The position numbers and the translations under genes are program-made. A stretch of 64,000 nucleotides of DNA. Origin: Catajapyx aquilonaris (lineage: Eukaryota). Below are positions 33,226 through 64,000 of this stretch, piece after piece. The stretch spans positions 1-64,000 of the forward strand of contig KZ538282.1 of NCBI GenBank assembly GCA_000934665.2. Direction: 5' to 3'. Position 1 is the first letter of the stretch. The number at the start of each line of letters is the position of its first letter. The notes beneath the pieces are model-generated. The model did not search any database and was not told the DNA's origin. It saw only the letters and a list, made by a program, of their open reading frames with translations.

Positions 33226-33889
33226 AGGGACACTCCACTCAAATCACAAGTTTGGCTCTAAAAATCGGGCAAAAGAATCCTGAATCCGAAGGTGCAATCC
33301 GTTTTTCGCTACGCGGAACGGTAATCCCAGGGCGAGGGGTCAAAGTGAGGAAATTCAAATAGTGCGCTAGAAGCTGGCCGTCCGCCAGCGACGCCCTCGG
33401 GACCTTGGGAACTGGAAGGCTGCTCCCGCCTGCCCGCGCGCTTAAGGCCTCTACACAAATTCGGCGAATGGCTGGGCGGGCGGAAAACGTGCGATTGGGG
33501 CGCGGAATGGGAGTGGTGACAATTCACATATTCAAGCGGTGGCGCTGCGGGCGGAAACTGGTGCGCGGTGGGAATCGCTCAAGTCCATCCGGGTGGACTC
33601 GTGCGATTGCCACCGCTCAGTTCCGCGCCCCAAACCACGCCCCCAAACGCACTCTTGCCGCCCGCTCAGTCTTCCGCCGAATTTGTGTAGCGGCCTTAGG
33701 CCCATCCCAGAGTGGTGCAGCCCTCCAGTTCCCCTCTTCCCCGCGTGGCGGCGCCGCTCAGACGACACACTTTGACACCTCGCCCCGGGATTACCGTTCC
33801 GCGTAGCGAAAAACTAATTGCGCCGTCGGATTCACGATTTTTGCCCGATTTTTAGAGCCAAACTGTTTTTTTTTGAGTGGAGTATCCCT
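33226..33889. mobile_element. Kolobok-type fold-back MITE
   Basis: TTAA|AGGGACACTCCACTCAAA...TTTGAGTGGAGTATCCCT|TTAA; arms pair through TTTTTCGCTACGCGGAACGGTAATCCC and the GC-rich interior. Confidence 0.88.
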
Positions 33890-42000: not shown

Positions 42001-45000
42001 GACACTCGAAAGACGCTTCACTCCCCGAAGAGAGAGCTTCACTGCCCGAATTTATTTCCCGGAGAAAAACTTTCCGTTCATGTCAGCCCCATAAAAAGGA
42101 GGTTATTATTTCTCCCACCGCTGCCACCATCAAATTTACGTCGCGGACCGGATTGGTCGGAAAAGCAGGCATTGTTCTCCAGAAAATATGGTTGTGGTAA
42201 GCACGATCCGTATAGCCAGGATACAATCGGGCGTCCAACAGTTCCTCCAACTCCCAAAGACCCCTTGGCTTCCTTTATCAACTCGGTTCAAAAGCACTTT
42301 TTTGCCCTTCTACTATACCCACCCCCTCCGCTGCTCCACTTGTTACATGAAGAAAAAAAACTGGGGCTTTTTCTCATTAGGTGTAAAATGTGTGTTGCTG
42401 TCTACAAAAACGCATAGCATTTTTTGGTCCTTTCAAGGAATCGAGCCACATTCACAAAACTATCCTCGGGAAATGAACCTATTCGTTTTCGTTGTATAAC
42501 TGGAGACATGACAAGACATAACTGGTGCGCTAAAAACTAGTGACTTACATTGCACACATGACTCCACACAAAATCATTCTCACTAGTGGTGTAACAATTA
42601 CAGAGTAACAAGATCAGACTTCACAACCTATGAACTACCATGGGTGCATAACCCTGAGGAATGATCAAACATATGCTGAATCTTGCACAGCGTATGTGCA
42701 GTCATAAAATTACTGCTGTAGACTGTTCAATGCAGTATTTTTCGGAAGCTTCTGAGCACTCACTTCACTTATCTAAAATAGGAGATTAAAAACTGGACCA
42801 ACGAATAGATGCATTTTCCCGACTTCAGTTCACATCACGAGCATCAGAGCAGGACATTGACATCGCAGAACGTGACAGTTCCTCCAGACTACATCGACAC
42901 GTTGCTCTGGCTGCCAGCATGCAGGAAACATAAACAGAACGGTACAGTAGGCTGGGCCATGCTGCACTTTTAAAGCGCTACAGCACGTGGCATGGGGAAT
43001 GCTTTGAAGTCTTCCCTTCGGGAGGAAAATACTTGAATACGTAGCCGTGGTACAAGGACAGAGAAGAAGAAGGCCCTGGCAAAAGAAGAAAACAAGTTGA
43101 ATAAAATGAAACCACAGCCAAAAAAATAAAAGAATCTTGCACAGCAAGTCATCTACAGCCATATGTCAAGCATGTGCCCCCATCATGCACTATCCCAAAT
43201 ATTAGTGTTAAATGCATTTTTTTCCTCAGCACCTTAGTCATATTAGTGCTTACCCTGAATACCAATCACATTTGGACTTACGAGAAAGAAAAAAAGGGAA
43301 AAAAACCAGATTAGGACCAAGGGGTCTCGTGCACCCTAGCCGAGCTTTGGGGGAGCAAATGGAGACGAGTGGAGCCTGTAACTCGGGCAGTATGCAAGAA
43401 GGCAAAGTCCTTCCATTCCATCCCAATCCCAAAATTTCTACTCCCAAGGAAAGCCAAACACGTTGGGGCCCGAAAGCCGGCCCGGATCCTCCGCAAACTA
43501 ACGGAGATAAATGAGGCTCGTCTCTCCTCGAGACTCTGTGCCTCTTCAACCACACGAAATATGACGCGTCACTCTTTCGTCTAACTTCCTTTTGCCCACC
43601 CCCTCTCAAAAAAAATGGTGGGGGAGGAGATGTCTTTCAGAGAAAATGTTTCCGGCAGAAAAATTGATCCGATGTCACAACACACTATAATTCCTTCCCT
43701 CCAGTGGATGGAACAGGCACTCTAGTGCACTATTATTGCCACATTATTTTTAAGAGAAGGGGGCAAGGGGAAGTAATGCGACACTTTTTTGACCAGCATA
43801 TCCTTCTTTCAGATGGCTTGCAGTAAAACCTGAAGCTCTGCCGTCACACATTGGCGAGCATTTTTTGTTTTGTTTTGTTTTCTACCCACCCCAACCTCAT
43901 GTCAATCCGTCGAAAAAGGTGACGAGTCTGGAGGTTTTTCTACTTACGGGAGAAGCACCACTTTTCCGTTTTGAAGGCATACAAAATGAATAGCACTACG
44001 ATGACTAGGAGGATAAGGCAACCAATCACAATTCCCATGACCGTCGCCATCGAAACCGGATCTGGAAGACAAAGTGATGTGTCAGGTACTCTGTACGTCA
44101 CTAGAGTGTCGTGGAAAGGGTTACAAGTGCTGCTACTGTGCAAACTATTGGACTTGCAACGTTGGACAAAGGGACTCGTGCAGAATGAAAAAAACGATAT
44201 TACAAAAAACACAAAGAGAGGTGAGTGACAGAGGCTTCACCTCGCTTAACAGTTGACAGGACATGACAGGTTTCAATATTGCTACAATCTCACGCATTAT
44301 GATCAGGAAAGGGGCTGATAACTCGTGACCTATGGCTTCTTGGTCTTAGAACATGCAACAGTGGAATAATTTGACGTGTAGACCAACCCCCTCCGTTTTA
44401 TTGGTGGTTATGCGTGAAAGAGTTAACGTTCACCAGCATGCAATTCTGGAGGGGATTGGACTACAACTTTCTGGGAGGTTATGTCTCGGTAATAGTCACG
44501 CATCCGGGAGACATGCTTACAAGAATCTGTAGATTAATAATCACAAACCGCCAATTTCAACGAGTTATCAACTTTGACCTACAAGGTAATCACTCTACCT
44601 CCGAACGCAAATACATGTAACTAACACACTTTCTAATACCGAAACATGGCAAGTACCACAATCATTGACTGCATTACTGTTCTCGAGTTCACGTCGTGTC
44701 AGTCACGACCTCGTTTCCTTTCTTCATGTCTGGTGCTAGTTACAGTACCTGCATGCAGAGGTATTGACCAATACATACCAACACCATTCTATTCTACTAC
44801 CCACTGTCCACCCATGCACCCCATAAATACATCATGCACGGGTTGGAGCATGGTCATCGTCTGCAAGTGTGTTACATACACTTCTTAGTCCATTTTTGAA
44901 TAGAATTATTCCAAGTTGAGTAGAGCAGAATGTCTTAAGACAGCTGAGAAGAAGGCCGATGGACGCATCCATGTTCCCCCCTCGTGCCCCCGTACGCACC

Positions 45001-48000
45001 CCGGATAGTGTCTCCTCCTGGCTCACCTCTGACGGCAAGAGCCACGGCGTATCGGTCGAGCCCATGGTCATTCTCCACCTGCAGGTAGTAGTTGCGGGCA
45101 TCGGCTGCATCAGTCCGAAGCACACGAAGACGGGCCTCGTAGCAGTCCTCCCGTTTCTCCTGGCCAAATCCCAAAATTTACTAATACACACACCACGACT
45201 ACATTTTTATCACTATCAGTTTCAGCTCATTATTTCTTGGACATTTTAATCATCTCAAGGACAGATGCGACCTTGTAAACCATCCTCATCCATAAAAAAT
45301 ATCTCCACGTAGCCCCTTATTCATGTTACCAAACCCAGAGACCAACCCTCCATGCAAAGCTGAAAGAAGGGAATATGGCGTGAATTATGGGGTTGCGTGA
45401 AGAAGTGAAGCCAATTACGTGACTTCTTTAACGTTTCCAAGCCCATTTTTTGTATCCCAGGTAGAGGGTGGCTAACAAGGTGCCAGTGACGCCCCTGACA
45501 GATGGATCAGATATCACCTGAGGTGTTCCACGTTACGTTGGTTATGTGTTCATTACATGTGCAAAGAGTTTTGTGTGGATAGTATACCAAGAAATAATGG
45601 CTGGACACAACGTTCTCCAATTTTAGGAGAGATGTCCACTATAAGAGAAGCTATATGCTATCTCTGTACTGTTGCTACAGTTGGCACTCCAATCTGAGCA
45701 CACGTATGTGACATTTGGTGACGAGTGGAAAGCACTGCACTTGCCAGCTGTCTGCGACACTAGAAATCCTTCCCATGACAGTTTTGATTGAAAACTGCCA
45801 CACATTTTGACTCCAGAAGTACAATATTTATGCCACATGACGTAAATGTTGCCCCGAGCTTATTTTACGTTCTGAAAATGTTCTCGTTCTGGAAACTTGA
45901 CTCTCAGCAGGAACTAGTCCCAGCAGGTTGAATATTATGATCGTTGCAATATCTTCATTTGTGAGGCTTCCTGGCGGGAGCAATCCCTTGGCCACGCAAA
46001 GATCCAATAATGATCCAGCTCGTTATGACTAGTGAAAACTCGGGGACTCGAAAGGAAATGGGGGGCCAATAAAGCTTCGCCGATAGTCAAGGAAACTTCT
46101 CAAACAACTCCAATCTGCATTATTTCAAAGAAACTAGGGGGGTTAAGTATGCAAGTAGATATCCCTCAAAAGGAAGCCAGAAGTTAAAACACAAAGCCGC
46201 AGAACAATTTTGACAATAAATGATTCCAGTTTTACAACATGGTTCTTTGCAAACCTTTGACTTTGCACAGATTTTTTTAAAAAGGTCAGAGAACCAGAGA
46301 GCTAAAAGTAGGCGCAAATCTAACTAAACAGGTCCATATTACGCAGTGTGTAATATATGCAGACATATTCATATACTCTCACGTTTGTTATTGACATGCT
46401 GCCAGTTGACTTTTTGTTGCTATGCCCCGAAAAAGTAGGGGCAGTCAAAATTATCCTAATTAAGTTTGGAGGGAGGCTAGAACCGATTAAAATATTTATA
46501 TCCACATTTGTGAACCGCTACAGTGATTACTGCAAAGTTCTCGTTTGGGGGCATGTGATACATTTAGTTTGCTTTTTATAAAAACAGTCAGATATAGTCA
46601 TTTCCATTATGTATACAGCACACGCATATACACTATTCAAGAACTCGTGAGAGATGTATTATACAGTGTCTCTGTATATTTTGGTAAGCTGCTAAGTTCT
46701 ACAGTACACTGACGCAGTTCATGCAGTATTCTACTACATTATTTTCAGACGTGACAATGAACTGTAGTATAAGACTACTGGCACAATTAGACCTACCACT
46801 GTTTTAGTACAAGCAGCAACAAAGTGACATTCATTTCCGCATTAATGGACTGTCATCGACGCAAAACTTTTCACCTTTGATTGAGTTCATCGGTCCAGGA
46901 CGTTTTTAAAAATGTATAAATTTTGAATAATTCATATGTTCCAGATACGTCGAGCCGCTAACTAACCAATTTAATGTCATAAACACCGCGTAACTGCCCG
47001 GAACCATATCCATGACGTGACTGCCGATGGCAGAGAGAACTATATGTATTGGAAATGGCTGATCAATGTTATACACGATGTACTGGAGAGTAGTGTAACG
47101 CCGAACATGATTCAATTAACAGCCCAACTCGCATCGCAAGAAACGACCCACCCTATAGAGAAACGCAGACACAGATTTACCCGGGTCGTAAATCGGTCGT
47201 AAGGTGAGTGATTCCGGAACTAATTGTGCTGTAAACTGGCGTGTGCTGAGTGGATTTCGTGCATGTATTGCTGGACCGTATTGCAAACCTACTGTTAGCT
47301 GTCTTGCTCCCGAGTATCCCCATTTGCTGGATACAACGCCAGGCAAATATTTGAAGCCAACAGCAAGCCCGATGGAGCGAAAGAGATACTCTCTCTTTCA
47401 CTTTGGCTAAGCGGTTGGTTCCATGATTGATGAGATCGCCCTCTGGCCTGCGTGACCACAGGGCTAGCTAATGGAATCCGGATCGAAACTTTAACCGCTT
47501 TTTTTTTTTGAACAGCTCCACAACTCTTTCGGCCATTCCCACCTGAACAGCAAAGCGATTAGTTTCCGTCATCTTTAGGGCAGAGCGCATACATCTTTAA
47601 AGTGTACATGCTGCGGTGGTATACTCTCATGGAGGATTATTATTGCTTCCGGGCAAAATGAGGCTCCTACCTGGTTTCCAATAGGTGGTCATCAACGGAA
47701 GCTCCAAGAGGACGCAGGCTTAGCGTTATAGGTCCAGCAAAAGATTAATCCTCTGGCTCCCCCAGGGCCTGGCATCCTTGGACGCCCACAATATGGTAAT
47801 AGTCAGGGGATAAAGGCCCAGAGCCCATGATCGGGGGCTAAAATTACCACTACCTGACCTCTTATAATATGCTCGTTTATTCCAGCCCGGCTATTCCACC
47901 AATAATTCAGCGCCCCGGGCATCCGCAGGAAATTACCTGAAAAGTCGCCTTGTCTTCTGCACCAGCTAATGGACTGACTCTCTTTCCATTGCTAGATGTT

Positions 48001-51000
48001 TTTTGTGTTTGTTATTTTAACTGCGGGTCGTTGGGCCGGATCTATCGCTGGATTTTACGGCTCCTGATCAGCGAGTGCCCTTTATGATGGCCGCTTCTCC
48101 GGGATCAGGCCCGTAAAAAGGCCGGCCCGTGAGGAGACATATACCAGGCGCAGAATTAATGACGCAGGCACTTTGGCGACCAGTGTCCGAGCGGACGTTT
48201 CATTTAATCTTTCATGGGTACTGGCTGTTCAGCTGGGAGTGAAAAGTCTCGCTCCTGCTCTACATGCACGCTGTGGACGTGCTGCTGGGGCAGACTCAAA
48301 CTAGGCCTACCTTTCGGATTTCTTCGGCCACATATCGGCCCTCACCGGCACCCGCCACCAGCTGGATGCTGCCCCATTCCCACGTGGCTCGGTTGGGTCT
48401 CGGGTTGGCGCAGAAGACCACGGGGATGAGTGCATCGTGTCCTTTCTCCACCACCACCTCTCTCTCCACAGAGTGCCGAAGAACCTGCGGTGCTCCTGAA
48501 ACGACCACAGAATCCCTTTGATTTAAAAGACCATAAAAGGACGTGCATTTCACTACACGGTGTTAGTTGTACCCATAGCTTTCCCACGCTGGACAGCATT
48601 TTGAAAGGCTGCAATTGGTGCTCATGACATTGATTAACCTGGGCGAAAAGTACTGTGCAACTAACGGGCAGCGTGATTATTTATAATTCATCATTTCACA
48701 CAATTACGGCCGTCCGCTTGATGACACTGCTGAATTTGTCAAGGGGTTTCAGGACTGCGGGGATGAGACAACAGAAAAATCGGTCCTGCACGCCACGTCT
48801 GTAGTCAAACGTGCAGGGTGATGGGCACAACAGTATCAAAAAAAGGCAGGTCCCAAATCAATCAAATCGCTCGCTATTGCAGTGCAAACCATTTAACGCG
48901 ACTAAGTGGGACACTTTCATCGATTAAATCGAATCACGATGTGACGGGCCCCATCACTAGAGTACTCTCGCTGACTAATGATTACCGCAACTTCGATTAC
49001 AGCGCAAAATAACAATATTATGTTTAGGGAAACAATGTGGCATGATTGCCCCATAGCCTAATTAGTTTCCAACTCGGAAGAACCCATGCAGAGCGGTCCA
49101 CGCTGCTGCTGCTGCATTGTATACGCAAAGAGAGATTGTGCACCCCGAAAGGAGCGAGAGAGAAAAATCATACTGCAGTTTCAACCCCGGGATATTAATG
49201 CCCCCGTCCGGATGCCACGCAATCTCGGATGCATTAATCACGCTAATATGCATAATCGGCTAATGTTTCTGCAATCATAGCATTTGTACATCAACAGCGC
49301 TCTGGCTTGATCCAGGACCATCGACCCATTTTCTACTGGGGAAACGAGTCTCCCTTTTCCAACCCCCGGTCTCTCTCTCTCTCTCTCTCCCATTTTATTT
49401 TTGTTGTCTTTTTTTCGCTTTCTAGGCACGTGCATCATGTATTTGTTGCGCGACAGCTAACACTGCCTTTACCGGTCCTAGCAACACAAGCCCTATTCGC
49501 AGACTGTTTTTGGGACTAGGTGTCTCCCAGTCCGCTTCAATGCTTACTCATCATCTGGATAAAACATTTCCGCGGACACCATCAAGCTGCATCCACCACC
49601 CAAAATGCAATCCTTCACAGTCCAGCATTGCGGCATATGAGCCAGTTAAAGCTGGCCTTTTATATTTCATAATGGCGTGACACATACGATGCTCAAGAAG
49701 CCAATAGTCGAGGCAGAACGACCCTCTTTGATAAATTAGCGCCGTTTTGGCTTTTCCTTTCTGTTTTCCACGCGGATGAGCAGCGAACGATTAAAGGAAA
49801 GGCCCGGAATGAATTTGCAAAGGCGCCGGGTGGGTTCTTCTCACAGACATCCCGTCGGAATCCTCCTCGACTTTGGCTTATATCCACCTTGCTGCTACTC
49901 CCCATTTTCTATCTCTTTTAAGTGAATCTCTCTCTTTTTTTCTTTCCTTTTTTCTCTCCCCTTTCTTAGATTCTATCCTATCCCATCCTTACGCGGACCG
50001 TTTCCTATCTACAGAACTAGACAAAAAAAAAATCAGCCAAGGAGCTGATTTACGGGGGTTGGGGGACTATGCAGATTTACTGCACCCCAGTCTTTGATGT
50101 TTTCGGGGAGGCAGAGAATGCACTCGTTCCAAAGGCAGGAGGATTCGGATGGATTTTCATATTTGGAACTGGTTCAGAGGGAGCAACGTGTTGTCAACCG
50201 CCTGCTGCTCCAGCTTTCTCTCGACATGAATCGGGTTAAACATAGATGTATAGAGAGGTCCAGATGGGCAAACACGGCTAACTACGCGCGCATCAAAACT
50301 TGAGAGCAGGAGAACTGCATAAATGAGTCGCCTGGAAGCAGGGGACAAATGCGACTGATACCTCAGCAATAATTTCGAGGCGGAGGAGATATACGGTGTC
50401 CTTTAATAGGTCCTTGCCGTCTCCGTGCGGCGATTTCAATTCGCTTAGGTGCACTTAATGTCCGGGTGAGGCGTCTCTAAGTGGAGGAAATTACGTCTAA
50501 TCATCGTCCCAGTTGTTCTGCATAACCCTTTATGAGTGGAATGAGAATGGAAGCTCGAGTCTTTAAAACCAGCTTAGCCCTTCTCTTCCGTTACCGCCTT
50601 TCAGAAAGAAAAGACAGCAGTTTGCCAGCACTCCTGCGACTTTCCCTGGCAAATGATTGCGACGCCAGTGGCGCACAAAAGCCTGGAGGCCTGCACGGGA
50701 TAGATTGAGTCGTTAGGAGCATCAGGACCAAACGGATATCTGTTGCGGAATTTTCTGGCGCCGCCGCCGCCGCTGCTGCTTCTACAGGGGCGCATTGGAT
50801 GATGACGCCACAATGCTTCCCGCTTAACGGCCCTGTTAGAGAGAGAGAGCCCGACGAGCCAACTGGCCGGGCTTCACACTCGTATCCAGCCTTTGCTTTG
50901 CCCCGAGTCCAATTGGACTCGTTCTGGATTTGTAGGGTAAGTGTGAGCTGCGTACAGACATCTTCGTGTTGCTAATGCTGGATCAAACGAGCCGGAGCGC

Positions 51001-54000
51001 TGCTAGAGGAGTTGGGTTGAAGCAACCAACGCTGATATGTAGGCACTTTCTACTGACAGGGGGAGCCTCCAATACAGGAGGTGCCTTGATAGGCTAGGAT
51101 TGGCCCACCCTAACCTTACTCCCGAGCTCCTAGGCTTAGGATGCTGGATCCAGGAGGACATGACTCGTTACAAATTCCCTTTCAACTCGGGATATAGGCA
51201 GCTATAGCTGCTCAAGTACATTTGCACCACTGAAGCACACGGGCTTACCTTTGCGCGGCGCGAAAATGCTGTCATGATGATGCAAATCAAAAGCTTATTA
51301 TTTTACCCTTCCTAGGAGATAATCTGGACTTTACGGGCAAGTAAAAAAAAATCCATACTAATCCTCTGGCAGTATCCTACCCCTTTAGTCTGAATGTATC
51401 TAGTTCAGAGGCATATTACAATGGAGATAAATGACATAGTAGTTGCAGTTGCAAAAGCACAGTACGTGTACACGATTTATTTGCATGTGATACCCATCAG
51501 CAGGCTAAATCTGTTTCCGGGACTACATCAGCCCACGTATACTATATGAACCTGCTATAGATGCAAGAGAGCAACCGCCACGTTATAAGCCTGTTAATGT
51601 TAAATGTACAACAGCTGTCGGTTTACATCAGCTAATCAGCATAAGTCCTGAAACAATACCCTGCCGCTCTAAAAGGAACCTGTACAAAGCTGGTTCATAT
51701 AGGTCCCCGTGAAGGCTAGCAACATAAAGGTGGAGAGGCATGGGCTATATAGTCGGTGAATACTGACATAGGCAGTGTTGACGCCCTGCAGAATTTATAT
51801 GAGTTGTGCACCGGGCGTTGATTCGGAAAACCTCTTCTCCGCTCTCTGGAGTTGGTGGAAGCAATTGGGATGCTGCTGGAAGGTTCGCTTGGCACCCGTA
51901 AAAAGACCCACAAATGAGCTATAAAAGACAATGGACGGCAAAGTCGACTCGGGGCTTTATGCCTAGGGGACACTGAGCAGTGACCTTGCATGGTGGATTC
52001 CTTTCCCCTAAGCGGACTTCATAAAGGCAGAAACAATTTCTGTGGCCGCTTCATTATTGAAAGGGCTTCCTTTGTGCTACGTGCTGATACCGGACACTGG
52101 GAGCAATGGAGAGGAAAATGGTCAAAGGAAAGCTCCACCACTCCAATAGGAATACTCCGTTGGGTCCACTAGATACCCAAACTTCCCTCTGCTTGACCTA
52201 CCTAAGGCGATTCTGAGGCGCAGACCCAAAAGGGGATTTCACTCAGGCCGAAGCTCTATACATATGTTTGCACCCAAGCCTCAACGATCCATCTCAAAAA
52301 AAAGTAGATAACTTGCACGGAAACTACAGTACATGGGAGGAAGGAAGGCTCCTGTTAATCTTGTTGCTTCATTTTCTCACCTGTTATGTTTAATTATTGT
52401 GATCTAATTACGTTAACGATGTTTGCCGAGGAAAGTTTCGTCTCCCAAGGCAATAACCATTCTTCAACGTCCTTACCCTGGGTTTTACACTTTCCAGCTT
52501 TTTCCATTATCGCCTCGTACTGAGTCTCAATCGATACTAATACGGTAAAACACATCAGTTGGGATTACAAATTGCTTCTACAGGCCTGGGTCTCTTATAG
52601 AGCTCTAACAAGAAGGTGCACTTGAGAAGCTGACCTACATCCAGCCTGTGGGTACCGCACGTGTATAATAGCAGGATTCCTTTTAGGTGTCAATTTGAAC
52701 ACTGATGATCCTAGGTGCAGGGTCGGGGAATTTACGTCGCTTCCAGAGTGCGATGAAACCGCCTTCCAATCAATCGATCAGGTTATAAAGTAACGAGCAA
52801 CCCACCACGTCTCCGCCCACTCTCTGTCTTCTACGATCGACCTCCACCCGAGAACAATTCCAGTTCCGTTTAGATGCTCTTAGTGGGGGAACCGCAACCT
52901 CAAAGAGTGATGTGGTCGTGCCAATACACCAGGGCAGACCCATGGAAACAGCGTCTCTAATTTCCGCCACGCAGAAGGAGGGAAAATTATTATTACAACT
53001 TCTTCTAACATTACTATTGATCTTTTATCGAGCTACTCGAGACGCCTTCGAAATGGGAGGACTAGCCGAGTCAGCTTCCCTTGTTGCGGTATACGTGCTT
53101 CACCGGCGGCAACTTTTGGATGACCAACACACCACAAACCTCTCATGCTAACGGAAAGAAGAGGCGGATAGAATGAGCAAAAGGGCTTTTCCTGGCCTGT
53201 ACCACACTGGAGGCACGCACGATTATTTGGCTGGCAACTCGGACGAGTTCGTTGCACTTTTCCTCAAAATGGGAAAGGGAAAAACTTGGACACCAAGCAA
53301 TGATCGATATTTTGTGTGATGATCTTCCAGTCGGATTCATCCCCATTATGCTTTCTACAGAAATCCTATTCAATTTGCAAACCAATAACTGCAGTCTGTC
53401 AGAGGCTTGTCCCCCCTCCTACTTCTGCTGCCTCCCCTTTCCATCCGAAGGCAAGAATTAATCCTTTCCTTTTATGCTGGGATAACACGGTTGATCCCTC
53501 GGTCTGTTTCGCAGCACTTCACCACACGCGTACAGTAGAGGAACAATCCATCTGCCAAGTCTCATCCAGGCATCCAGAAAGGCACGGGGAAATAAGGATT
53601 AGGAACCAAAATCGAAGCAAGTTCTCAAAAGCGACGAGAAGCTGCGACTCTGTAATCTCATATCGGGTGACAAATTGAGAGTTGGAGTCGGGCTTCCGTC
53701 AACTAACTCTGGCTCTCTCCTCAAGAGAGAATTCGCTTGGCTGCCAAGCTTGGAGTCGGGAACATTTTTGGAAACTCCGGATGTAGGTCCTCTCCGGAAG
53801 GACAGGAAATAAAGCAAACCTTCCTGCTTGCCTTCACATCGATCTGCTGGGAGGTGGCCCCTTCCGCTCTCTTGTGAGTTACAACGCCGGAAGATTCATG
53901 GCCCGCCAATTACTGTTCCAGTTGGACGCAACTCTCCAAGGAAGCTGGCACCATATAAACATACCACCAGATTTCAAACACCGCCACTTTGTTGCAGAAT

Positions 54001-57000
54001 CCTTGCAGCAAATACCTCACTGTCTGGGACCAAAACTGCGTCCAACTCCAACGGTCATCGCCTTCCAATCATGCTGCCACCCTCTAACGGTAGCGTCCTA
54101 AAACACCGTCCAGCATGTACATGCTAGCGATTCAATATACTATAGAGAGGGTAAAAATGATTCCGCCAGCAGAAAGGCTCCATGCTTGGCTCTCAGTCGT
54201 ATTCTAATTTTTGGGGTCGGCGTTATGGGAGTGTCTTTATAGGAGCATAAAAGTCCTATTATCCTAAGTCCGTCCCTGATGGGAACTGAGAGCAGTTTAG
54301 GTGAAAATGGCTTCGGGGACCATGCATTGGCCTATGACGTGCAGCGCGGTGTATGTGGGATTTGCTTAACTAAACTTTCCCAAAAATGGACTGAACGAGT
54401 TTTAGAGCGGAGGACTCGATTTTTTTTTTTGTAAAACGTACTGTGCTGTACTCGTTTTTATTCGGGTCGGAATTTGCACATGGAACCAAGGAAGAGGTAT
54501 GTGAGGGAAATATGTGAACATCCTGGGTTGTTGAAACTCGCCACTCAGGGTCGTAGCCATATTTGCAGCGTATTTCCTAATTTTCCCGGGGGAATACCTC
54601 CGGACGACCCCCCCAAAAATACAACACTTCATCAACACGTCCACTCTACTGCCGCTGCTGGAGTGGTCCAACTCCAACTTGTGCCCTGTTTTGGCACACA
54701 CAAAAAAAATGATTGAAACGTGTAAAATGAGGTTGAAAGTTGGAGTGGTAGCGTATCCTACTCCTGTGGGAACGAGCCCACGTTTGATGGGGCGGAGGGT
54801 CCTACCCCTCTTTTGTGAGTCAAAGCTGGACTAATTATAAGAAGTGGAGTTATGGGAGCGTCGCAGCAAAGGATCAAAGCGTCAGTTGGCGCCATGCAAC
54901 TGATCGCCGCCATGCAGATAAAAAGGCTTCAATTTATGCCAGTCTGCCTTCGGGACAACAGGCTCGAATTAAGTGGGGGGTAGGGGGTACTGGTTTAGGT
55001 CTCTCTTTGTCAAATTACTCCCCCACATATATTATTATTCTAATCCGTTTCACACTTNNNNNNNNNNNCCTTATCAAAGGACGTATGCGACAATAAGCAT
55101 AAGCCTATTACTTCTGTCTGGCTTCCGTTGTGCTAATTGAACCATCGCTTGACTAGGTTCTGATTAAGTGTAGAGGGGTGAAAGAGTAGGCTACAAAACG
55201 CTTAGAACTCATTGTCACTCTTCGTTCGAGCGTTGACTTTTTGCGCAAATGTGCGAAGTGACGTCCAGTGAAAATGCTGTTCAGCAGCTTTGTGCCAGAC
55301 ACTTTGCCCCAAGAGCACTATATTATGTGGACGTGCCCGCAAAGTTCATTTGATAAAGGTGCTTTTTCGTGTCAGTCACTTTTTTTCCTACTGCACGACT
55401 GGCCACAAACGCATTTCAGCCGGAGAAAACCTAATTTCCGATATGGCTCCGACCGTTTGATAAGTCTCAATCTGCTGACTATTCATATATGTATTTTTTT
55501 GTTTCCATTTGCTTTGTGGGTGCACAACCGCGCGCGTGTCAAATCAACACGATAAATCAATAGCGCGGCCACATCAATCCATAGAGATTATTGGCCCACC
55601 GTTTGATTTAAAAACCTTTGTTCAAAATATAAAAATATAACTGGGTGTTGAGGTAGGACAACAATATTTATAAATTTATAAATTTTATTTTGCATATATG
55701 GGTGATTCTCCCAAAACTTACCAATACTATGTCCCGGCATAATATCTCAAAAATGGCTTTACTGAGAGATTTGATTTTCTAAACATCTGTAGAACCAGTT
55801 GACACCTATAGCCATCCCCATGCAAACAAAGAAAAATATTAAATTACCTTTTACTGCAAAAAAATGTCTACGGGCCTAAAATCATTCTTCCAGGCGTGTC
55901 CCGATAATATTTTAAAGCATGCTATATTTTCTTACCATGTTATCATTAACATTAGACAAGTTCCATTACTATAATTAAATTGTACATACTTGAAGGTATA
56001 ACACAACATTTTAAAAACAATTTAATCATTTTACATGACCTTGCTGCATCACTCCAAAGTGTGTCCCGAGTAGTTTTCATGTTACTCTACTGGATCAGAA
56101 TATTTTTTAAAATTTTGCAGTGAAACAAAGGGATTGTTCACTCGGTAATTTGGCAACACTGCTTCTCCACGACACCTTGATTTAACTACAAATTTCTGTG
56201 CAAGAAGTACGTCTCCTAGTGGGTTAAAAATTAAGGAGTTTTAAATTCAGTTATGTAGCACATTTTGCGTTAACACTCCTGGATCACTTTTCTATGGCAT
56301 ATAATGACTCAAATGTTTTGAAATAACTGTTATTCCATTGAATGAAGGGACCTCATCACCTGACAGAAATGTCTAGAGTCAACGTTTGTTCTAGACCGTG
56401 ATATTAATACTAATGCATCCAAAGGTCATTCTTCGGGCTCCCAAAGTCCTGGCAATAATTTTAATATTTCAACAAAATTATCGTTCTTGAACAAGATGCG
56501 ACTCAAAAAATTGGCCATCATCAACTAGTGTCTGAAAATTTAATATTAAAATTCCGGGAGTTTTTTAGTGCATGCTGTGGCCATTTCAAGTGCAAAAAGA
56601 CTTGTGAAACCAGGTTTTCACTCCCTGGGGGATATTTAAAAACTGAGTTTCACTTTTTGATCTAATATTATGATGAACAACGTCCAATAAAAATTATTGC
56701 GGTTAACTGCAAAATTAATCATGGAAGATTTCAACCACATTATAATATGAGAGTTAGGTCCCCCTATTTTTCCCTTGTTTGTGACCTCGTATATAGTAAG
56801 TGGGAACTTTACCTCGTTTTTGAAACAAGTTTTGAATTTCATTAATTTTTGTTTTGAAAATGGTAAGATTTTGGAGAATCATCAATATATGGCATACGCA
56901 GGACTACAATATGTACAACGTGCTGACATCTCAGCACAGTCGAAGACAAGTGTACGTCTGGCTGTTCGTTGTGCTAGACTCTAGACAAGTCTCTGAGTGC

Positions 57001-60000
57001 TTCTTTCCTATACTCCAACTGACATGGTTACAATAAGCGGCAGAGAAGGTTTTAATCCCTGGTGAGTGGCATCTATTCAGAGGCGGCAGAGCACAAGTAA
57101 TAAATTCCACGTCCGAATTTGCATCGCGCAGATGACAGAAGCTCGACTTGTGTGACCCATTCCCCCACCCCTAGAGCTGTTTTCATTGCTCGAAAGAGCG
57201 GACATGATGATGAGAAGGGATATTGTCCAGTCCGCCGCGTAACAAGCCGCACAGTCAAACTTCCTGCCTGCCACCAAGAGAGATAAAAGGCAATGACTCC
57301 AGTGCAGTACACGCCCAGCGGGGAATTTCCACTATTTATTGCTAGCTAGGAAGTGGGGCTTGACTGACTCCTCTGAAAGGCTGGACATTACTCCTGAAGT
57401 ACGACTCACATCAAGACTTACCGAGTAGTTGCGCATGCAAATGCGCAGCGACCTGCCATTCAAACACTATCTTACGATGCCAGACTATTTGCTAGCATGC
57501 TAATGTTAATGCTCAAGACCAACCTAAACACAGTAGAATAAAATGTCAAATATGCTGACACTATAGGTGCAGGGTGAACGGACTGCAATATGACTGGTAG
57601 CAGCGAGGTGCCTATCTGCGCCCCAGTTGTACTTCGTTATGGCCTTGTTCCTCAGGCTTAAAAGAAGGTAAACTTCAGAAAATCCTCTTTCCTCTAAGAT
57701 AAATAGTCCCGTTTGGAGGGAAGTGAGCGTTAAAAAAAGTCTCCGGGAAGCCAATCAAATCCTACACCCTACTCTCTGCAGCAGCTCGCATGATTGGGGA
57801 GGATTTGGCACTTGTTAAACACACTACCAGCTTCTTGACACGAGATGAAACGGCTCTAACTTCATTTTCAACGATGGATTAGAGCTGCCTCTATGCATCT
57901 AGGAGCCAATCCAAGCTTTTGGAAGCCGCTCAACTGCAAATGTGCCAGAAGCTATGAGGACAAGGGTAGTTAGAGAGAAGAAACCACGCCCACTATATAT
58001 AGAAACGGCCAGCATTACTACGTTTCCAGATGTCATTTAGATTGGCCGCCAGGGTCGGGATTGGTCAAACTTTATAGATGTAAGCCAAGCAATCTTGATA
58101 GCTTGTTGTTTTGGCAGAGGTTTCAGGAGGGTCGTACTGCTGAGCCCAATATTTTGATTATTGTCAATTCTGTATAACTAGTGTTCAGACCACTCCGATC
58201 CACTCCGACTAGAATGCAAGATGGCACTTGGAAGTTTGCGTCTCATTCGAAACATGAGATGAAGCGCAAAATCCTTGCTGAATGAATGTACAGCAGAGTG
58301 GAAGCCGACTAACAATTCCCGGAAAGCCATGTCGGTTGTCAAGCAAGGAAGGAGGCTCCATCACGGGTAGATTCTGTTTGGCTAGGGTAGAGGTACTCGT
58401 GTCTCGGAAGCCTGTAGTCAGCTTATAATCAAGTATAAAGCAGACTTGGCAAGCGTATTAGGACGTCTGTGGCGGAGTAATTCCGGCACAGTTGTTTCTG
58501 GTCGGGAGACGCGGCGGGCGAGGAATAGGAGGAAGATGAGGCCAGCATTCTTCTCACATCCTCTCCTGCCTCAATTGAGCGCCGACTTGCGCACCTCCAA
58601 AAGCCCTCCCTAGAAACCCCGCAGCCTCCAAAAAACTTTTCCTCGCGCATCTTGGAATCTGCCACAAAAGGCAAGCACAGTTGCTGTTGCCCTTACAAAA
58701 ACTTGTCTCGTCAAGCTCAAAGTGACCGGCAGGGGCCTTCCTTGTCTTTGCCTGCACCTATCCAAATCTCGTTTGTGGCAGCAGCAAGTAAGCAAGGCGG
58801 GTGGCAAGACGTGCTTCTAGATACCACCTACATAGTGCAGTGGAGCAATTTCTGCTGCGGCTGTTGCAAATTGACTTGTCGAAATATTCCGATTCAGAGG
58901 CGGAGTTGCAGACTCTCGGTGGTGGGCGTCGTTAAAACTTGGCGCATTTCTTTTCATCAGTTGCCTCTCTCCTTCATCAAGAAACTGGGGAGAGAATCGC
59001 AGCTTCCCATGCCCAGGAGGCGCCGGGCCAAAATGACCTATTAGGCCCAAGACTAGGCGGGAGAAATGAAGCCTAAGGGTGAAAAATGAAGGCGCACGTA
59101 CAACTTCTTTAGCTCCTTTTCGCCTCCTCTCTTTTCTTTCTCCTGGGCTTTGCTGCTCCCGCAATTACACAAACACATTCGGCTTTTTCTGCAGAAAGAA
59201 TTTGTCATCCAGCTATATGAACTAAAAGAAGCGAGCCACTGCAGAAGGAAGAAAAAAATGAGGGTGAGAAACAAACATTCATTGGAGGATGGAGCATTGT
59301 TATCTGGCGCATTAGAGACAAGAAGGCTGTCAAGAGCTGCCCAGTTTTTGGGGGAAGAAACTTTCCCGATGACAGAAGCTCTCCCACGCCCGTCAATTTG
59401 TTCCAACTTGTAATTGCGTTATTAGTGCGCGTCGCCTCCAGACCTGATAGCACCACGTTTATGACAAGTTAACTGCAGGAGGGACGACACAAAATTTTGC
59501 TCTCCGTGACGTATCAGGCTTCATTTCTAGGGGGGATCCTACGCATCACTGCCTCGCCCTTGCTATATACCCTGGATTTCACGGGGTTTTCTCCCCCACC
59601 CATACATTGATAGCGAACATGAAGAGTGGAGATCCTGAGAGATCCCGTTCCATTATCTGGCAAAATGTCCCCTCTTCCAACATCCGGACAAATTGGTTTT
59701 ATGATTTACGCTCTGCTCCGCCGCCAATATCGCCCTCCATCCCCGGTTTAAACGTTTGTCCGACTTGCACGATTCGGCAGGGGAACGAGACTCCCCGAGT
59801 TATAAACACAGTTAAGAGATGACAGATTTTTCTGTAGGACTCGGTCGAGGTTGCCCAAAACTTCCCGCCAAAACATCAGAAACAAAAGATGGGCGGGAAA
59901 TCCGATATTATTGGCAAGTAGCCTGGCGACCTGGCGGTCAACAAACTCTCGAAGTCATTCATAGACGAAAGACGTATATTTGAACACCTCCCAAAATGTT

Positions 60001-63000
60001 CAAGCGTATGGCTGCCATGCTGATACCCAAGCACCCCAGGGACATCACCAGCTGGCTCTTCACCAGCGATACCATCATGAGGGAGATGCACATGATCCCG
60101 ACCATCATGTGCTGCGTGACCTCCCTGAGCCTTGGTGTCTACACCATCATCCACTCCTGCTCCAAGTTGGACTGCGAGTGGACCCGCAAGGGACACCAGC
60201 CCAAGTGGGAGTATGTGGACCTGCGCAAGCCGCCCTACATGCACATGTACAACCCCTGTGGGAAGCCCTACCCCCCGATGCCAGAACTGCAGGCTCTTCG
60301 TGAGGAGATTGGGGTCATCTCCCACGACCCGTGCAATAAGTAATAGGTAAGCTTGAATTTCATTTTCAATAAGGTCATACTCACGAGTATATTGGTTTCC
60401 ATTTTGGCTGAGTTGGTCTATTGTTACCAGCAGGGGTGCCAATGCTGCTTTGTTAACATTTACAAGTATTGGTAGTATTGCAGTCAATTTGCTTATCATG
60501 GTTACCTGAATAATGGTGGGTATTACCTTGACGATGATGCCAACAAAGAGGGGGAGGAACTAATCCACGCTAATTCGAAGTTACATGCACGTATTAAATA
60601 AAAATATCCTGTCTAATCGCAGGTGTCCATCTGGATGTGGACAGCTAGCATCGGAGCTACCAGCAGCGCAGCACCCGGCAGCAAAATTAGCACCTTAAAA
60701 CGGCCTCATCAAAATTGACGATTAAAGTGGTTAATACTCCAACCCTTTGTGCCTCAATCAACCCTAGGGACCCAAAGCCTTTGTCCGTGCAACGCCCATT
60801 GTTTTCAGCATGGGAAAATGATGCGATTACTGAAAAAAATAATAATCGATGGGGAATAACGTCAAGTCGGATTACACCGAATTGGTGGTGGAAATTAATA
60901 CGGCGTAGATTGTCAAGAAAAAAATCCCGAATGTGAAGCCATTGCACCGGATGAAGCCTATCATTTTGGGCTAAAAATCCGAGCAGGGTTGGGGGGATGG
61001 TGGGAGGGGATCTGGTGGGAAGATAATAGGGGGACAACGAACCACGAATCTTTCTTGTCGGAACGGGATTTGTGTGAGCTGGAAAAAAATGAATGTCACC
61101 CGCGAGTGACGTCGTCAGCTAGGTACAACCTAATTCCCTAGAGCATCCACATCCGCACCATACTGTCACCATTGTCGCTGGTGGTCTGACTCTGAGACGG
61201 CGAAATCTTGGCCTTTGGCGTAATCCTCCGGAAGCCCTTACTGGTGGAACCAGCTCGTTAGCGGAACCTAATCTGCCTGTCGCATATTCCACCTTGACGA
61301 CCCCAGTGGTTAGCTTCGTATCCGCTTTGAGGTTGGCTTTAACTTGAGAAAGAAAGGTTACTCACCCACGACGTTCATGGTGATCGGCTCACTCTGTACA
61401 GTTCGATCCTCCCCAGCGATGACGTTGGATGCCTTGCACACGTAGTCTCCTTGGTAGTCGTAAGTCACGTTGTGGACCACCAGTCGTCTCTCGCTGCCTC
61501 GCACGTACACCGTCTCCTCGTTGGCCGACATGCGTTGCAGCCACTGGAACACCGGTGGTGGGTTGCCTTCGGCCTCGCAAACGAACGTGGCTCGTTCATA
61601 CAGGGTCACAGTCAGCTCGGACGATGGCTCCATTTGGGTTATCTTAGGTGGATCTGTGCGGGAACAGTAGTGATGATGTATCGCCCGTCATTACCACTCC
61701 AGGACTTAATATGCAACTGTCACTTTGATTAATTAGGGAAAAACACTCGCGTTAGGACCCAATCCCCGGACGACTAGTGGACTGGACAACTCGGAGGGGG
61801 TGGGGGAAAAAAATACAGTTCGCTTTTGCGACCATGCTTGTGCCCTAGGTCAATAAGGGTTGCAGAGTTCCAAAGGAGCGGAAAAATTCCCTTGGCACAG
61901 GATGTTTGTCGGAAAAGCCTTTTGGCCCCTATTTGAGGATGTGGGTCAGCTCGTTGAGGAAGGGAGGTAGACTCCATCGGGGGGATTTTCCCCATCACAG
62001 TCGTGGATGATGGAAGAGGACGTTTACGGTAATTGGATGCTCCTTTCTCCACCCCTACCCCCTCTCCCCTAAAACGAGTTCCAGAAATCCATTGAGACGA
62101 GTACCCGAGTAGCGAGCGCCAGAGAGAGGGACACGGGGAGAGAGTTGCTCTTTGTGATTACTCGCACGTACTTTCGTGCAAACTTTTCTTCAATTTCGGA
62201 TGGTTGATGGCAACACAAATTGTCTTTCAGGTATTACCGGGATGGAGTCGCGTGAGCTCTTCCGCATTACGCATGTGAAAGAGGAGGTTGGTGGAAACGA
62301 GTCCCCTTTGAACGGGAAATAGATACCCACCACCCCCTGTAGCAAACCAAGTTCTGTATGAAAAAAAACACAGTTCCTATTCTTCTTGTTCTTGTTCCCA
62401 AGTCCCAACTCTCCTCTTAGCAACTTCGGCGCTGACTTGCCCTTTTAATCGATAGCTTTCCAAACTGAGCCGGCGTGGATTGGAGGGAAAATCGTTTGAC
62501 TCGGAGGGATCTGACAGTTCTTTAGTGCGGGCAAAAACAACCCAACGGATCCCTTGGGTGACTATAGGTGACACTGTCTGGAAAACAACTCCTCTCAACA
62601 GATTCGGTCCAGGGCAGCTCGGACCATTGTTATACCTTAGCGACAAGCAGATTAATCAAACCACTATTCAACCTTGTTTTTGTCTAATTAGCGGGGGGCA
62701 ATTCAGGATTCGTTAGTCTTGCATGCTAATTAGGACTGGTACTTTGGCGAGGGAGAAATCTGGTAACTCACATTTAACATCAACTTCTACTCGGAGTGTG
62801 TCGCTAGATCCCAGCGTATTTTTGGCCTCGCAGACATAGGTACCGGCGTGTCTTCGGCCGACAGGACGGAACTCGACGGACTCTTGGAAGTTGTAAGTGT
62901 CGGCACTGCCCAGCTTTCGCCAGACGATGTGAGCCGGTGGGTTTGCATCAGCGGTGCACCGTAATGTCAGTGCGTCCTTTCCTTCCTCCAGATCGGCGTT

Positions 63001-63032
63001 AGGGCTGCCTTGGAGTTTGGCGATGGGTAGAT
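35858..63032 (-). CDS. Type I Ig-superfamily cell-adhesion receptor (Fasciclin-3/Kirre/nephrin-like), 5' partial: join(62772-63032,61366-61653,48311-48495,45027-45159,43948-44061,36863-36896,36616-36769,35858-36055)
   Basis: Two canonical Ig domains (LRCTADANPP..W..GTYVCEAKN; FVCEAEGNPP..W..GDYVCKASN), a non-canonical third Ig domain, a TM helix and a tyrosine-rich tail. All seven introns are GT-AG with matching phases; about 455 aa lie in the window. The upstream exons are beyond position 64000. Confidence 0.9.
36616..36769 (-). CDS. Ig receptor cytoplasmic exon
   Basis: gtcacag|C GAG AAG AGC...: EKSDAESTRDSS...DAIYSSPKKPPPNHSDLDYENMK, ending AAG|gtgagg. Confidence 0.85.
36863..36896 (-). 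CDS. Ig receptor 34-nt juxtamembrane microexon
   Basis: ctcttccag|AA CGG GGT GAC TTC AAG CCA ACT GAT CTG GAA AG|gtaacg = (Q)RGDFKPTDLE(S); it bridges phase 1 to phase 2. Confidence 0.82.
43948..44061 (-). CDS. Ig receptor transmembrane exon
   Basis: cttccag|AT CCG GTT TCG ATG: PVSMATVMGIVIGCLILLVIVVLFILYAFKTEKWCFS, ending C|gtaagt. Confidence 0.92.
45027..45159 (-). CDS. Ig receptor exon (second half of the membrane-proximal Ig domain)
   Basis: ggccag|GAG AAA CGG: EKREDCYEARLRVLRTDAADARNYYLQVENDHGLDRYAVALAVR, ending G|gtgagc. Confidence 0.92.
48311..48495 (-). CDS. Ig receptor exon (first half of the membrane-proximal Ig domain)
   Basis: tttcag|GA GCA CCG CAG: APQVLRHSVEREVVVEKGHDALIPVVFCANPRPNRATWEWG...EEIRK, ending AAG|gtaggc. 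Confidence 0.92.
55058..55068. other. Assembly gap (11 N)
   Basis: Short run of Ns. Confidence 0.95.
55600..56900. mobile_element. AT-rich island, possibly a DNA-transposon remnant
   Basis: Abrupt drop in GC inside an otherwise GC-balanced intron; begins near GGGTGATTCTC (55700), with repeated TGTCCCG motifs. No paired TIR resolved. Confidence 0.3.
59862..59900. promoter_or_regulatory. Inverted pair of E2F-like sites upstream of the nested gene
   Basis: TTCCCGCCAAAA (59862-59873) and GGCGGGAAA (59892-59900), about 95-135 bp upstream of the ATG at 59996. Confidence 0.4.
59996..60343 (+). CDS. NDUFA4/COXFA4 (B12D/MLRQ) family mitochondrial complex IV accessory protein, C15orf48/NMES1-like, 115 aa
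   Basis: MIPTIMCCVTSLSLGVYTIIHSCSKLDCEWTRKGHQPKWEYVD..P....N....P.PELQ follows the NMES1 pattern LIP-TM-YS..K.D....RK....PWETVD...P.....N...KP.EELQ. Strong C/G third-position bias against the flanks, AAAATG start context, tandem TAA TAG stops, AATAAA at 60597. Confidence 0.82.
   Translation: MFKRMAAMLIPKHPRDITSWLFTSDTIMREMHMIPTIMCCVTSLSLGVYTIIHSCSKLDCEWTRKGHQPKWEYVDLRKPPYMHMYNPCGKPYPPMPELQALREEIGVISHDPCNK
61366..61653 (-). CDS. Ig receptor exon (Ig domain)
   Basis: cgcacag|AT CCA CCT AAG: (Y)PPKITQMEPSSELTVTLYERATFVCEAEGNPPPVFQWLQ...YQGDYVCKASN...MNVV, ending G|gtgagt. Confidence 0.95.
62772..63032 (-). CDS. Ig receptor exon (Ig domain)
   Basis: ttttgcag|AT CTA CCC ATC: LPIAKLQGSPNADLEEGKDALTLRCTADANPPAHIVWRK...AGTYVCEAKNTLG...VDVK, ending T|gtgagt. 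Confidence 0.95.
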
Positions 63033-64000
63033 CTGCAAAAAAATGGGATGACAAACGAACGTCAATTGTGGTGGGTAAAGTTGGGCGGTGAATGCACTCT
63101 AGCACATGTGGATTCCAGCTCAGGAGGCCGTTTCTATTCCCGGTTGAAGCCTTGGCCTGCACCTAAGCTCACCGCAGGCCTTACTAATGGGCGTCCGCCG
63201 GAGGAAACTAATTGGCTGCCATGTAGTTGGCGGTTAACAGGAACGCCGCGCCATTTATTTTAGCCTACAGTTATTCTCCATTGCGAGTCTGTGTATGAAG
63301 ATGTAAATCTGCAGGGAGGGAGAGTGCAGGTGTTTGAAATTTTCTCTCCAATTTCCATACCCTTTCCATCAAAGCCACCCGGATGCCTAGGACTACATTC
63401 CATGTATCTCGAAACAATATTCCTGAGAACCAGTAAAGCTAGCGCACTGTATGCCAACTGTTCATAGCCTGCTTCCATAATATTAACTTAGCGATGGAGT
63501 CCAATAGTGTACAACCACTACCAGGAATGTACAGTACATGTGTAGATACCGTGCTTGACCCCCTAATCTGGTCCCCATCGAGGTAATCGTGGAAGCGGAA
63601 AATAATCAATTCGCACCCTCTCACTTTCGTGCCAAAAGTGATTACGCGCCGCTTTTCTGCCCTGATTAAGTTGCTGCACCTAAGTGGATGTTGATGGCGT
63701 TTAGCACTCGACAACAGGTTGACTCGCTTTTGTTCCGCCACTGCGGCGTAGTACGTGGGCATCAGCAAAATGAGATTGCACTCATACATGCCCCGGCCTA
63801 CTCGACTGGAGGACATCTTTGTCGCAGCGAGAACGCCGCGCTTACAGGCCTCTCAATTTCACCGCAACGGCCTTACAAGTGGCTGCTTTTAAGCGTTCAT
63901 CCTGCCATGTCGGTTACCTATGCGCTTCTCTTGTTCGCCGCATTGCCTGGAAGTCAGGGGCTTCTTTTGCACCCATATGACACGCCCAGATAATTATTAT

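Follow-up and report, generated by a model that had tools for sequence, protein, structure and literature searches.

Homologues of both MISTR1 (NDUFA4) and MISTRAV (C15orf48) are reported in protostomes, and the S3 Table of the paper concerned (PMC7793259) has C15ORF48-type entries from scorpion, horseshoe crab, tick, leech, snail and octopus as well as from a non-protostome, starfish. In the same table fly and sea-anemone NDUFA4-type entries stand beside vertebrate ones, and S. pombe SPBC3H7.08c is among the NDUFA4 homologues. Drosophila ND-MLRQ is a recognised orthologue of mammalian NDUFA4 and co-migrates with cytochrome oxidase subunits (PMC9346487). 'ND-MLRQL' as the name of a fly paralogue had no literature match. 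Canonical insect OXPHOS genes keep an NRG element, whose core is expected no more than about 1 kb from the transcription start, and in 214 of 215 duplicate cases only one of the paralogues has it (PMC2241641).

A gene nested in an intron of an adhesion gene

The locus considered here is in a 64-kb window, this being the whole stretch of Catajapyx aquilonaris DNA analysed, on whose minus strand there is a Kirre/IRRE-like Ig adhesion gene. The best match of this host gene is a springtail protein with 60% identity, and as no closer match was present the proteome of the genome is probably absent from the protein collections searched; the 115-aa protein described below is likewise missing from them. 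In tblastn the springtail Kirre-like protein, P0003, is colinear with the minus strand at 63027-62773, 61666-61364, 48511-48311, 45162-45025, 44062-43946 and 36007-35861. The exons relevant to the nesting are:

61364..61666, minus strand: host exon on the upstream flank (Pfam Ig_3, E 8.8e-15; 60% identity to P0003 by tblastn)
48311..48511, minus strand: host exon on the downstream flank (tblastn to P0003 residues 418-484, 57% identity, continuing directly from the preceding exon)

Between them is an intron of about 12.85 kb, from about 48511 to 61364, the bounds of which are the ends of tblastn matches and are approximate (the initial annotation gave 48496-61365). The antisense nesting that the initial annotation described holds: within the intron, at 59996-60343 of the plus strand, is an intact ORF that runs from ATG to a TAA stop and encodes 115 aa in a single-exon CDS. 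An in-frame TGA at 59981-59983 is 12 nt 5′ of the ATG, whose context is CAAAATG.

The length of the ORF alone is not significant, since 41 ORFs that overlap 44000-64000 run for 90 aa or more from stop to stop. Its codon bias, also claimed initially, is well borne out. GC at codon positions 1, 2 and 3 is 0.46, 0.42 and 0.86, with the 1-kb flanks at 0.48 and 0.46 GC, and the GC3 value ranks first among the 188 ORFs of the window that span 80 codons or more from stop to stop; for the stop-to-stop frame GC3 is 0.84 as against a mean of 0.49 (sd 0.075) for the 188, and so about 4.7 sd higher. Three-base periodicity sets in at about 59990, declines at about 60340 and is co-extensive with the ORF, in which several codons are used one-sidedly (AAG 8 of 8, CAC 6 of 6, ACC 7 of 7, ATC 7 of 9). 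By these signs the ORF is a genuine protein-coding gene, with its CDS in one exon, and the codon bias suggests that it is highly expressed. Bias as strong as this is a better fit to a highly expressed gene than to a young testis-specific duplicate.

Layout of the product

The encoded protein can be divided as follows:

59996..60091, plus strand: N-terminal extension, aa 1-32, net charge +2, with PKHP at aa 11-14; covered by no profile
60092..60154, plus strand: predicted single transmembrane helix, about aa 33-53 (Kyte-Doolittle)
60092..60220, plus strand: putative B12D/NDUFA4-like core, aa 33-75, consisting of the helix and a juxtamembrane segment (PF06522 positions 6-49/54, sub-threshold)
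60221..60340, plus strand: C-terminal tail, aa 76-115, containing Pro and Cys (cysteines 88 and 113); unmatched

Among Kyte-Doolittle windows of 19 residues, those above 1.0 begin at residues 30-40 and reach 1.78 at most, and this is the only hydrophobic stretch; aa 54-115 have a net charge of +1. The product is thus a small single-helix protein with a polar C-terminal segment, which is the B12D/NDUFA4 layout, and like NDUFA4 (COXFA4, ND-MLRQ) it has its one membrane helix in the N-terminal half. The six cysteines counted in the initial annotation are at residues 39, 40, 55, 60, 88 and 113. The N-terminal extension that it noted is also real, for the sole Pfam alignment begins at residue 33, corresponding to profile position 6-7; the extension has the same codon bias as the rest of the ORF. 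On their own aa 1-32 match no Pfam family, and the tail (aa 76-115) matches none at E ≤ 10. AlphaFold2 run without an alignment gave models that are unusable, with mean pLDDT 36.8 for the full length and 46.2 for aa 28-89.

Relationship to B12D/NDUFA4

Searched at full length, the protein has no Pfam match at E ≤ 10. With three overlapping pieces as queries, PF06522 (B12D/NDUFA4) is the only family found among 24,736 models, with scores of 12.2, 12.6 and 13.0 bits (E 0.12, 0.091 and 0.069). Family membership as initially annotated therefore falls short in the HMM search, since 12-13 bits, with nothing for the full length, compares with a gathering threshold of 21.5 bits. The alignment of aa 33-75 to PF06522 positions 6-49/54 is nearly gapless, so that the helix and about 22 further residues align. 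A Pfam E of about 0.07 is not striking on its own, because of the 148 hydrophobic ORFs taken from the window as decoys 12 match some Pfam family at E ≤ 0.1, just one of them (RVT_1) clearly real; B12D matches among the 148 decoys at E ≤ 1 numbered zero.

A second approach leads to the same family. In the ESM Atlas, which compares protein-language-model features, the top three clusters are B12D, with scores of 0.91, 0.91 and 0.90 (193, 189 and 192 of 256 features shared), values that by the tool's own calibration rank as leads and are reached by 4-10 per 100 shuffled proteins. B12D features in 20 of the 30 matches, and the top cluster is one of arthropod proteins of 131 aa. When aa 54-115 were used alone, PF28569 C3H7_08c_C came first at 0.86 and B12D clusters at 0.83 were second and third, all of these scores being below the 0.9 lead level and the calibration not extending to parts of proteins. 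In that first cluster, whose taxa are fungal, 29% of members carry PF28569, and its family is common to just one of the ten best family-bearing matches. To go by its name only, PF28569 refers to S. pombe SPBC3H7.08c. The resemblance of the tail to fungal NDUFA4 homologues would, on that reading of the name, lie in this top Atlas cluster; against this the score is short of the lead level and the matched taxa are fungal.

Searches for homologues proper gave no counterpart. Exhaustive phmmer against 1.84 billion representatives at E ≤ 0.001 detected no true homologue, and its two matches, proteins of 700 and 386 aa, are artefacts, namely translated tandem repeats. A PDB sequence search at E ≤ 10 found nothing for the full length and no NDUFA4 match; the lone match of the core piece, a mannanase (E 5.5), is irrelevant. 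A word-indexed protein search produced no candidate homologue, and pattern matches in metagenome contigs (64) and viral contigs (5) included none that was confirmed. No second B12D/NDUFA4 family member was found in the 64-kb window.

The product might instead have no relationship to B12D/NDUFA4 and be a single-pass membrane protein confined to its lineage, its weak signals being due to a generic arrangement of helix and charged tail. In keeping with this, all of the family evidence is below threshold, hydrophobic decoys readily gather weak matches to assorted membrane families, and the exhaustive phmmer search was without a homologue. We nevertheless regard this as unlikely: two independent methods agree on one family out of thousands, the helix-free tail still recovers NDUFA4-type clusters, and the decoys gave no B12D match at E ≤ 1. 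Of the original family assignment, what survives is that B12D/NDUFA4 is the sole family to which any method points, and what does not is any score above threshold. The evidence is coherent though below threshold, and the 115-aa product is probably a divergent B12D/NDUFA4 relative.

Comparison with C15orf48 and with OXPHOS duplicates

C15orf48 (MISTRAV, MOCCI, COXFA4L3) is placed in print in the same Pfam family (PMC7793259). The initial assignment of the ORF to C15orf48 in preference to NDUFA4 gains no support from the results. In contrast to it, no miRNA-like family was found by Rfam in or near the ORF; a miR-147-type hairpin, which is a feature of the vertebrate C15orf48 transcript, is absent near the gene both in the scan of the whole window and in that of 59000-61400, with no Rfam match at gathering score in the former and none at E ≤ 1 in the latter.

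The testis-biased and often retroposed OXPHOS duplicates of Drosophila, such as COX4L, provide another likeness, in that the ORF is intronless and the NRG element absent (PMC2241641, PMC8950493, PMC2995371). Unlike them it has an extremely strong codon bias, and marks of retroposition were not seen: a reading of the locus revealed no A-run or poly(A) relic 3′ of the gene and no target-site duplication, flanking direct repeats there being limited to a 12-nt chance pair. The intronless CDS may also differ from ND-MLRQ of D. melanogaster (CG32230), which has the figure 3 in a structure column in PMC551531, though the meaning of that column is unverified. Elsewhere in the window, at 23616-24338, there is a reverse-transcriptase ORF.

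It is very improbable that the frame is non-functional, be it an ORF that arose by chance, a dead retrocopy or a piece of a transposon or virus in which a coding signature persists. An intronless CDS, in a window which that reverse-transcriptase ORF shows to have retroelements, is what such an origin could leave, but the frame opens with a good-context ATG and is unbroken up to the tandem stops, its extreme codon bias is exactly co-extensive with it, and the locus lacks direct repeats and a poly(A) tract. Moreover, neither viral nor metagenome contigs have confirmed relatives, and Pfam shows no transposon family.

The three matches to the NRG core, TTAYRTAA, in the window (3125, 12827 and 31822) compare with 4.1 expected by chance, and no match is closer than 28 kb to the ORF; the NRG rule is insect-based and may not hold outside Insecta. 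This bears on whether the ORF is the canonical and sole NDUFA4/ND-MLRQ orthologue, a housekeeping cytochrome oxidase subunit that evolves fast in this lineage and is not a swap paralogue, a reading that we consider quite unlikely. In its favour, housekeeping genes that are highly expressed typically show a codon bias of this strength, and the 64-kb window has no second family member. However, fly ND-MLRQ is recognised as an NDUFA4 orthologue (PMC9346487), and fly and sea-anemone entries stand with vertebrate ones in the S3 Table of PMC7793259, whereas for this ORF phmmer finds no genuine match at E ≤ 0.001 in the 1.84 billion representatives and the Pfam score is below the cut-off. The missing NRG element, with the reservation just given, also counts against it, as do the 32-aa N-terminal extension and the 40-aa tail that no profile covers. 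Measured against NDUFA4 and PF06522, the product has about 27 extra residues before the profile start, 40 unmatched after it and six cysteines, and has no phmmer-detectable relative.

Sequences flanking the coding region

Several features adjoin the ORF:

59955..59960, plus strand: TCATTC, initiator-like (regex scan against the initiator consensus; a weak inference only)
60341..60346, plus strand: tandem stops TAA TAG (direct reading), with GTAAGC, which is splice-donor-like, immediately 3′
60347..60472, plus strand: 42 sense codons in the same frame past the tandem stops, with coding-like periodicity; putatively linked to the gene
60593..60602, plus strand: overlapping ATTAAA (regex) and AATAAA (direct reading), polyadenylation-signal-like, about 250 nt past the stop

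TCATTC is the sole initiator-like match in the 296 nt 5′ of the ATG and is downstream of both upstream ATGs (59819 and 59889). In the post-stop stretch GC3 is 0.60 as against 0.27 for GC12, a difference that ranks third among 894 ORFs and is reached by just 0.07% of 62,283 other windows of 126 nt; its translation has no Pfam match. By eye no convincing donor-acceptor pair was seen for an in-frame splice that would join the ORF to it. A second periodic patch, at 60828-60986, has its GC enrichment at codon position 1 of an open minus frame instead of position 3, and it too is without a Pfam match.

A divergent cytochrome oxidase subunit?

The reading that we favour, and hold to be reasonably probable, is of a nested single-coding-exon gene whose product has a very divergent B12D/NDUFA4 core and is likely a lineage-specific alternative or additional member of the family; as it is too diverged for a canonical orthologue, this status is the most likely one. 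The helix at about aa 33-53 and the next 22 or so residues would be a very divergent B12D/NDUFA4 (COXFA4) core, flanked by the basic 32-aa N-terminal extension and the 40-aa Pro/Cys-containing tail. If mammalian NDUFA4 and fly ND-MLRQ are a guide, the product may insert into the mitochondrial inner membrane and attach peripherally to cytochrome c oxidase, as its accessory '14th' subunit. Homology, mitochondrial location, cytochrome oxidase association and paralogue status are what we infer here from sequence and from known relatives.

A more adventurous and less likely possibility is that of a heavily expressed and highly diverged COXFA4-type subunit that would replace the canonical one in particular tissues or conditions, or else give cytochrome c oxidase a further, redox-sensitive point of control. 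It would have the basic extension and a Cys/Pro tail facing the intermembrane space, and the 42 codons past the stop might be what is left of a longer, two-helix isoform.

The testis-biased OXPHOS duplicates of Drosophila are amply documented. The general idea is also in print, as NDUFA4- and C15orf48-type homologues are reported from protostomes (PMC7793259), and so the finding is less new than was first implied and the gain would be one more, unusually divergent, case. That the ORF is an addition to the known NDUFA4 family is plausible but unproven. If confirmed, it would be an arthropod case of diversification of the cytochrome oxidase '14th subunit' outside vertebrates, and a family member hidden in an intron and beyond the reach of ordinary homology searches. 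It would then be a warning for the annotation of small nested genes, and useful for learning how the exchange of small subunits tunes complex IV.

An intronic gene of 115 codons

Among the open frames of the window is an ATG-initiated one of 115 codons at 59996-60343 (+), which has an in-frame TGA 12 nt upstream of its ATG, the start context CAAAATG and, at its end, adjacent TAA and TAG stops. Length by itself gives it no distinction, since 41 stop-to-stop ORFs that are 90 aa or longer overlap 44000-64000; it is the coding signature that does. By codon position (first, second, third) its GC is 0.46, 0.42 and 0.86, and the 1-kb flanks have a GC of 0.48 and 0.46. By GC3 it ranks first, with 0.84, among the 188 stop-to-stop ORFs that have 80 codons or more (mean 0.49, sd 0.075). 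Phase-specific GC in a sliding 90 nt exceeds 0.8 from 59990, is 0.87-0.97 within the ORF and falls off where it ends. Synonymous codons are used one-sidedly (AAG 8/8, CAC 6/6, ACC 7/7, ATC 7/9; ENC about 37.5) and, because the N-terminal 32 residues carry the same bias as the remainder, the first ATG is likely the start of translation. The protein has a single hydrophobic stretch, at about residues 33-53, and six cysteines (residues 39, 40, 55, 60, 88 and 113). The ORF is a real gene, and the intact, codon-biased frame with six cysteines described in the initial annotation is borne out by the ORF listing, GC3 and periodicity.

Immediately beyond the paired stops, the gene's frame is open for another 42 codons (60347-60472, +), specifying a hydrophobic, Cys-rich peptide. 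Its GC3 of 0.60 against a GC12 of 0.27 places it third among the 894 ORFs with 40 codons or more, the first two being the 115-aa gene and its antisense frame. The value is attained by 0.07% of 62,283 other 126-nt windows, most of which lie in known exons or in the retroelement ORF. The stretch has no ATG and no Pfam match, and starts with GTAAGC, which is splice-donor-like. It may be left over from an ancestral frame that ran further, may serve as an exon in another isoform, or may have arisen by chance; readthrough across two adjacent stops seems unlikely.

The host gene

The two minus-strand ORFs closest to the gene are immunoglobulin domains (Pfam Ig_3, E 8.8e-15 and 9.8e-11). Of 43 candidates from a comparison of host exon 61361-61687 with longer proteins, 11 have E<=1e-5. 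A springtail 'Kin of IRRE-like protein 3' heads them with 60% identity, and adhesion molecules of beetles and spiders come next; the host organism is an arthropod. With tblastn the springtail protein falls on the window as six colinear minus-strand pieces.

Pieces of the host gene matched by the springtail protein (tblastn)
63027-62773 (-), piece 1
61666-61364 (-), piece 2
48511-48311 (-), piece 3
45162-45025 (-), piece 4
44062-43946 (-), piece 5, the most conserved, 82% identical
36007-35861 (-), piece 6

Six or more exons of the host gene fall in the window, over 35861-63027 (-). Since the springtail residues are uninterrupted between pieces 2 and 3, the 115-codon gene lies antisense within a host intron of about 12.85 kb, and the nesting in an Ig-gene intron proposed earlier holds.

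Several other features of the window were recorded.

23616-24338 (-), open frame of 241 codons with a moderately high GC3 of 0.62 and an RVT_1 domain (E 1.8e-16), and therefore a retroelement fragment
33312-33813 (both strands), an apparent GC-rich island, less likely a gene, in which several open frames overlap, rich in GC at every codon position (GC12 0.61-0.65, GC3 0.61-0.69); no Pfam family was found in the two frames scanned
60828-60986, patch of three-base GC periodicity within a minus-strand open frame of 143 codons (60690-61118), whose first codon positions, and not its third, carry the enrichment; no Pfam match
1360-1460, 2477-2781 and 55058-55068, N runs (417 bases in total), which are assembly gaps

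Family assignment

The initial annotation had called for a profile search against the B12D/NDUFA4 family (Pfam PF06522), and this fails: the full-length protein matches no Pfam family at E<=10, and pieces of it score 12.2-13.0 bits, below the gathering score of 21.5. Each of the three pieces, aa 28-115, 8-85 and 32-89, matches one family, PF06522 B12D (E 0.12, 0.091 and 0.069), residues 33-75 forming a nearly gapless alignment with positions 6-49 of the 54-position profile, and no Pfam match is obtained with the N-terminal 32, the last 40 or the last 64 residues. As decoys, the 148 most hydrophobic of 480 N-free stop-to-stop ORFs of the window (at least 55 codons, none overlapping the gene) were scanned in the same way. 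Some Pfam family is matched at E<=1 by 25 of the 148 and at E<=0.1 by 12, among which only RVT_1, in the retroelement ORF, is clearly real; B12D is matched by none. By this standard an E of 0.07 is unexceptional, and the weight rests on which family is named.

The ESM Atlas names B12D independently of the Pfam scan. The three clusters closest to the complete protein are all PF06522, sharing 193, 189 and 192 of 256 features with it at scores of 0.91, 0.91 and 0.90, a level (0.9) also attained by 4-10 per 100 shuffled proteins. B12D accounts for 20 of the 30 matches, and the nearest cluster comprises arthropod 131-aa 'signal anchor' proteins. With the helix-free residues 54-115 the first match is a fungal cluster (0.86) in which 29% of members have PF28569 C3H7_08c_C, followed by plant and chordate B12D clusters (0.83), scores below 0.9 being leads only and the Atlas being calibrated on whole proteins, not on parts such as this; the family of the first match is common to just one of the ten best family-bearing matches. 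Going by its name, PF28569 would refer to S. pombe SPBC3H7.08c, which the S3 Table of PMC7793259 has among NDUFA4 homologues.

Direct homology searches are negative. A word-indexed protein search gave no candidate, phmmer against all 1.84 billion representatives at E<=0.001 no true homologue, a PDB sequence search nothing similar, and metagenome and viral contigs no relative. The only two phmmer matches were translated tandem repeats and were rejected. The AlphaFold2 models, built with no alignment, have mean pLDDT values of 36.8 and 46.2, too low for a fold comparison. As the best host-gene match is only 60% identical, the proteome of the host organism is probably missing from the collections, so that the absence of the ORF there is uninformative on annotation quality.

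Judged from its sequence, the product is quite probably a very divergent B12D/NDUFA4 relative. Its best Pfam score lies below the formal cut-off for the family, and filing it as a member would be premature. Of the nested antisense C15orf48/NMES1-like complex IV subunit initially envisaged, the real nested gene and the probable B12D/NDUFA4 relationship stand, with the Pfam threshold missed.

Relation to known subunits

An embedded miR-147 is the vertebrate hallmark of C15orf48, and Rfam detects no counterpart in the window or around the ORF. On possible retroposition, the coding sequence has no intron, and neither a poly(A) relic nor a target-site duplication was found in its flanks.

Protostomes are described as having MISTR1 (NDUFA4) and MISTRAV (C15orf48) homologues without MISTRH (PMC7793259), and the C15ORF48-type entries in the S3 Table of that paper include scorpion, horseshoe crab, tick, leech, snail and octopus, as well as starfish, a deuterostome. 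Exchange of C15orf48 and NDUFA4 in inflammation is reported (PMC8035321, PMC8654286), as are testis-biased OXPHOS duplicates in Drosophila (PMC551531, PMC2241641, PMC8950493, PMC2995371). The concept is thus already known, and the novelty is one unusually diverged candidate.

In mammals, NDUFA4 is given as subunit fourteen of cytochrome c oxidase, and its fly orthologue, ND-MLRQ, as co-migrating with oxidase subunits (PMC9346487). In insects the NRG element, with the core TTAYRTAA, marks canonical OXPHOS genes and is in one paralogue only in 214 of 215 duplicate cases, the account in PMC2241641 not stating its reach beyond Insecta. The core occurs three times in the window, against 4.1 expected by chance, and nowhere within 28 kb of the ORF. 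This absence, and the failure to detect the ORF in collections that yield arthropod, springtail and beetle matches to the host gene, suggest that it is not the canonical NDUFA4 orthologue.

By analogy with NDUFA4 and ND-MLRQ, the protein would be anchored in the mitochondrial inner membrane through its single helix and may bind complex IV at its periphery. So extreme a codon bias suggests high expression, which would suit a subunit in broad use better than a testis-specific copy of recent origin.
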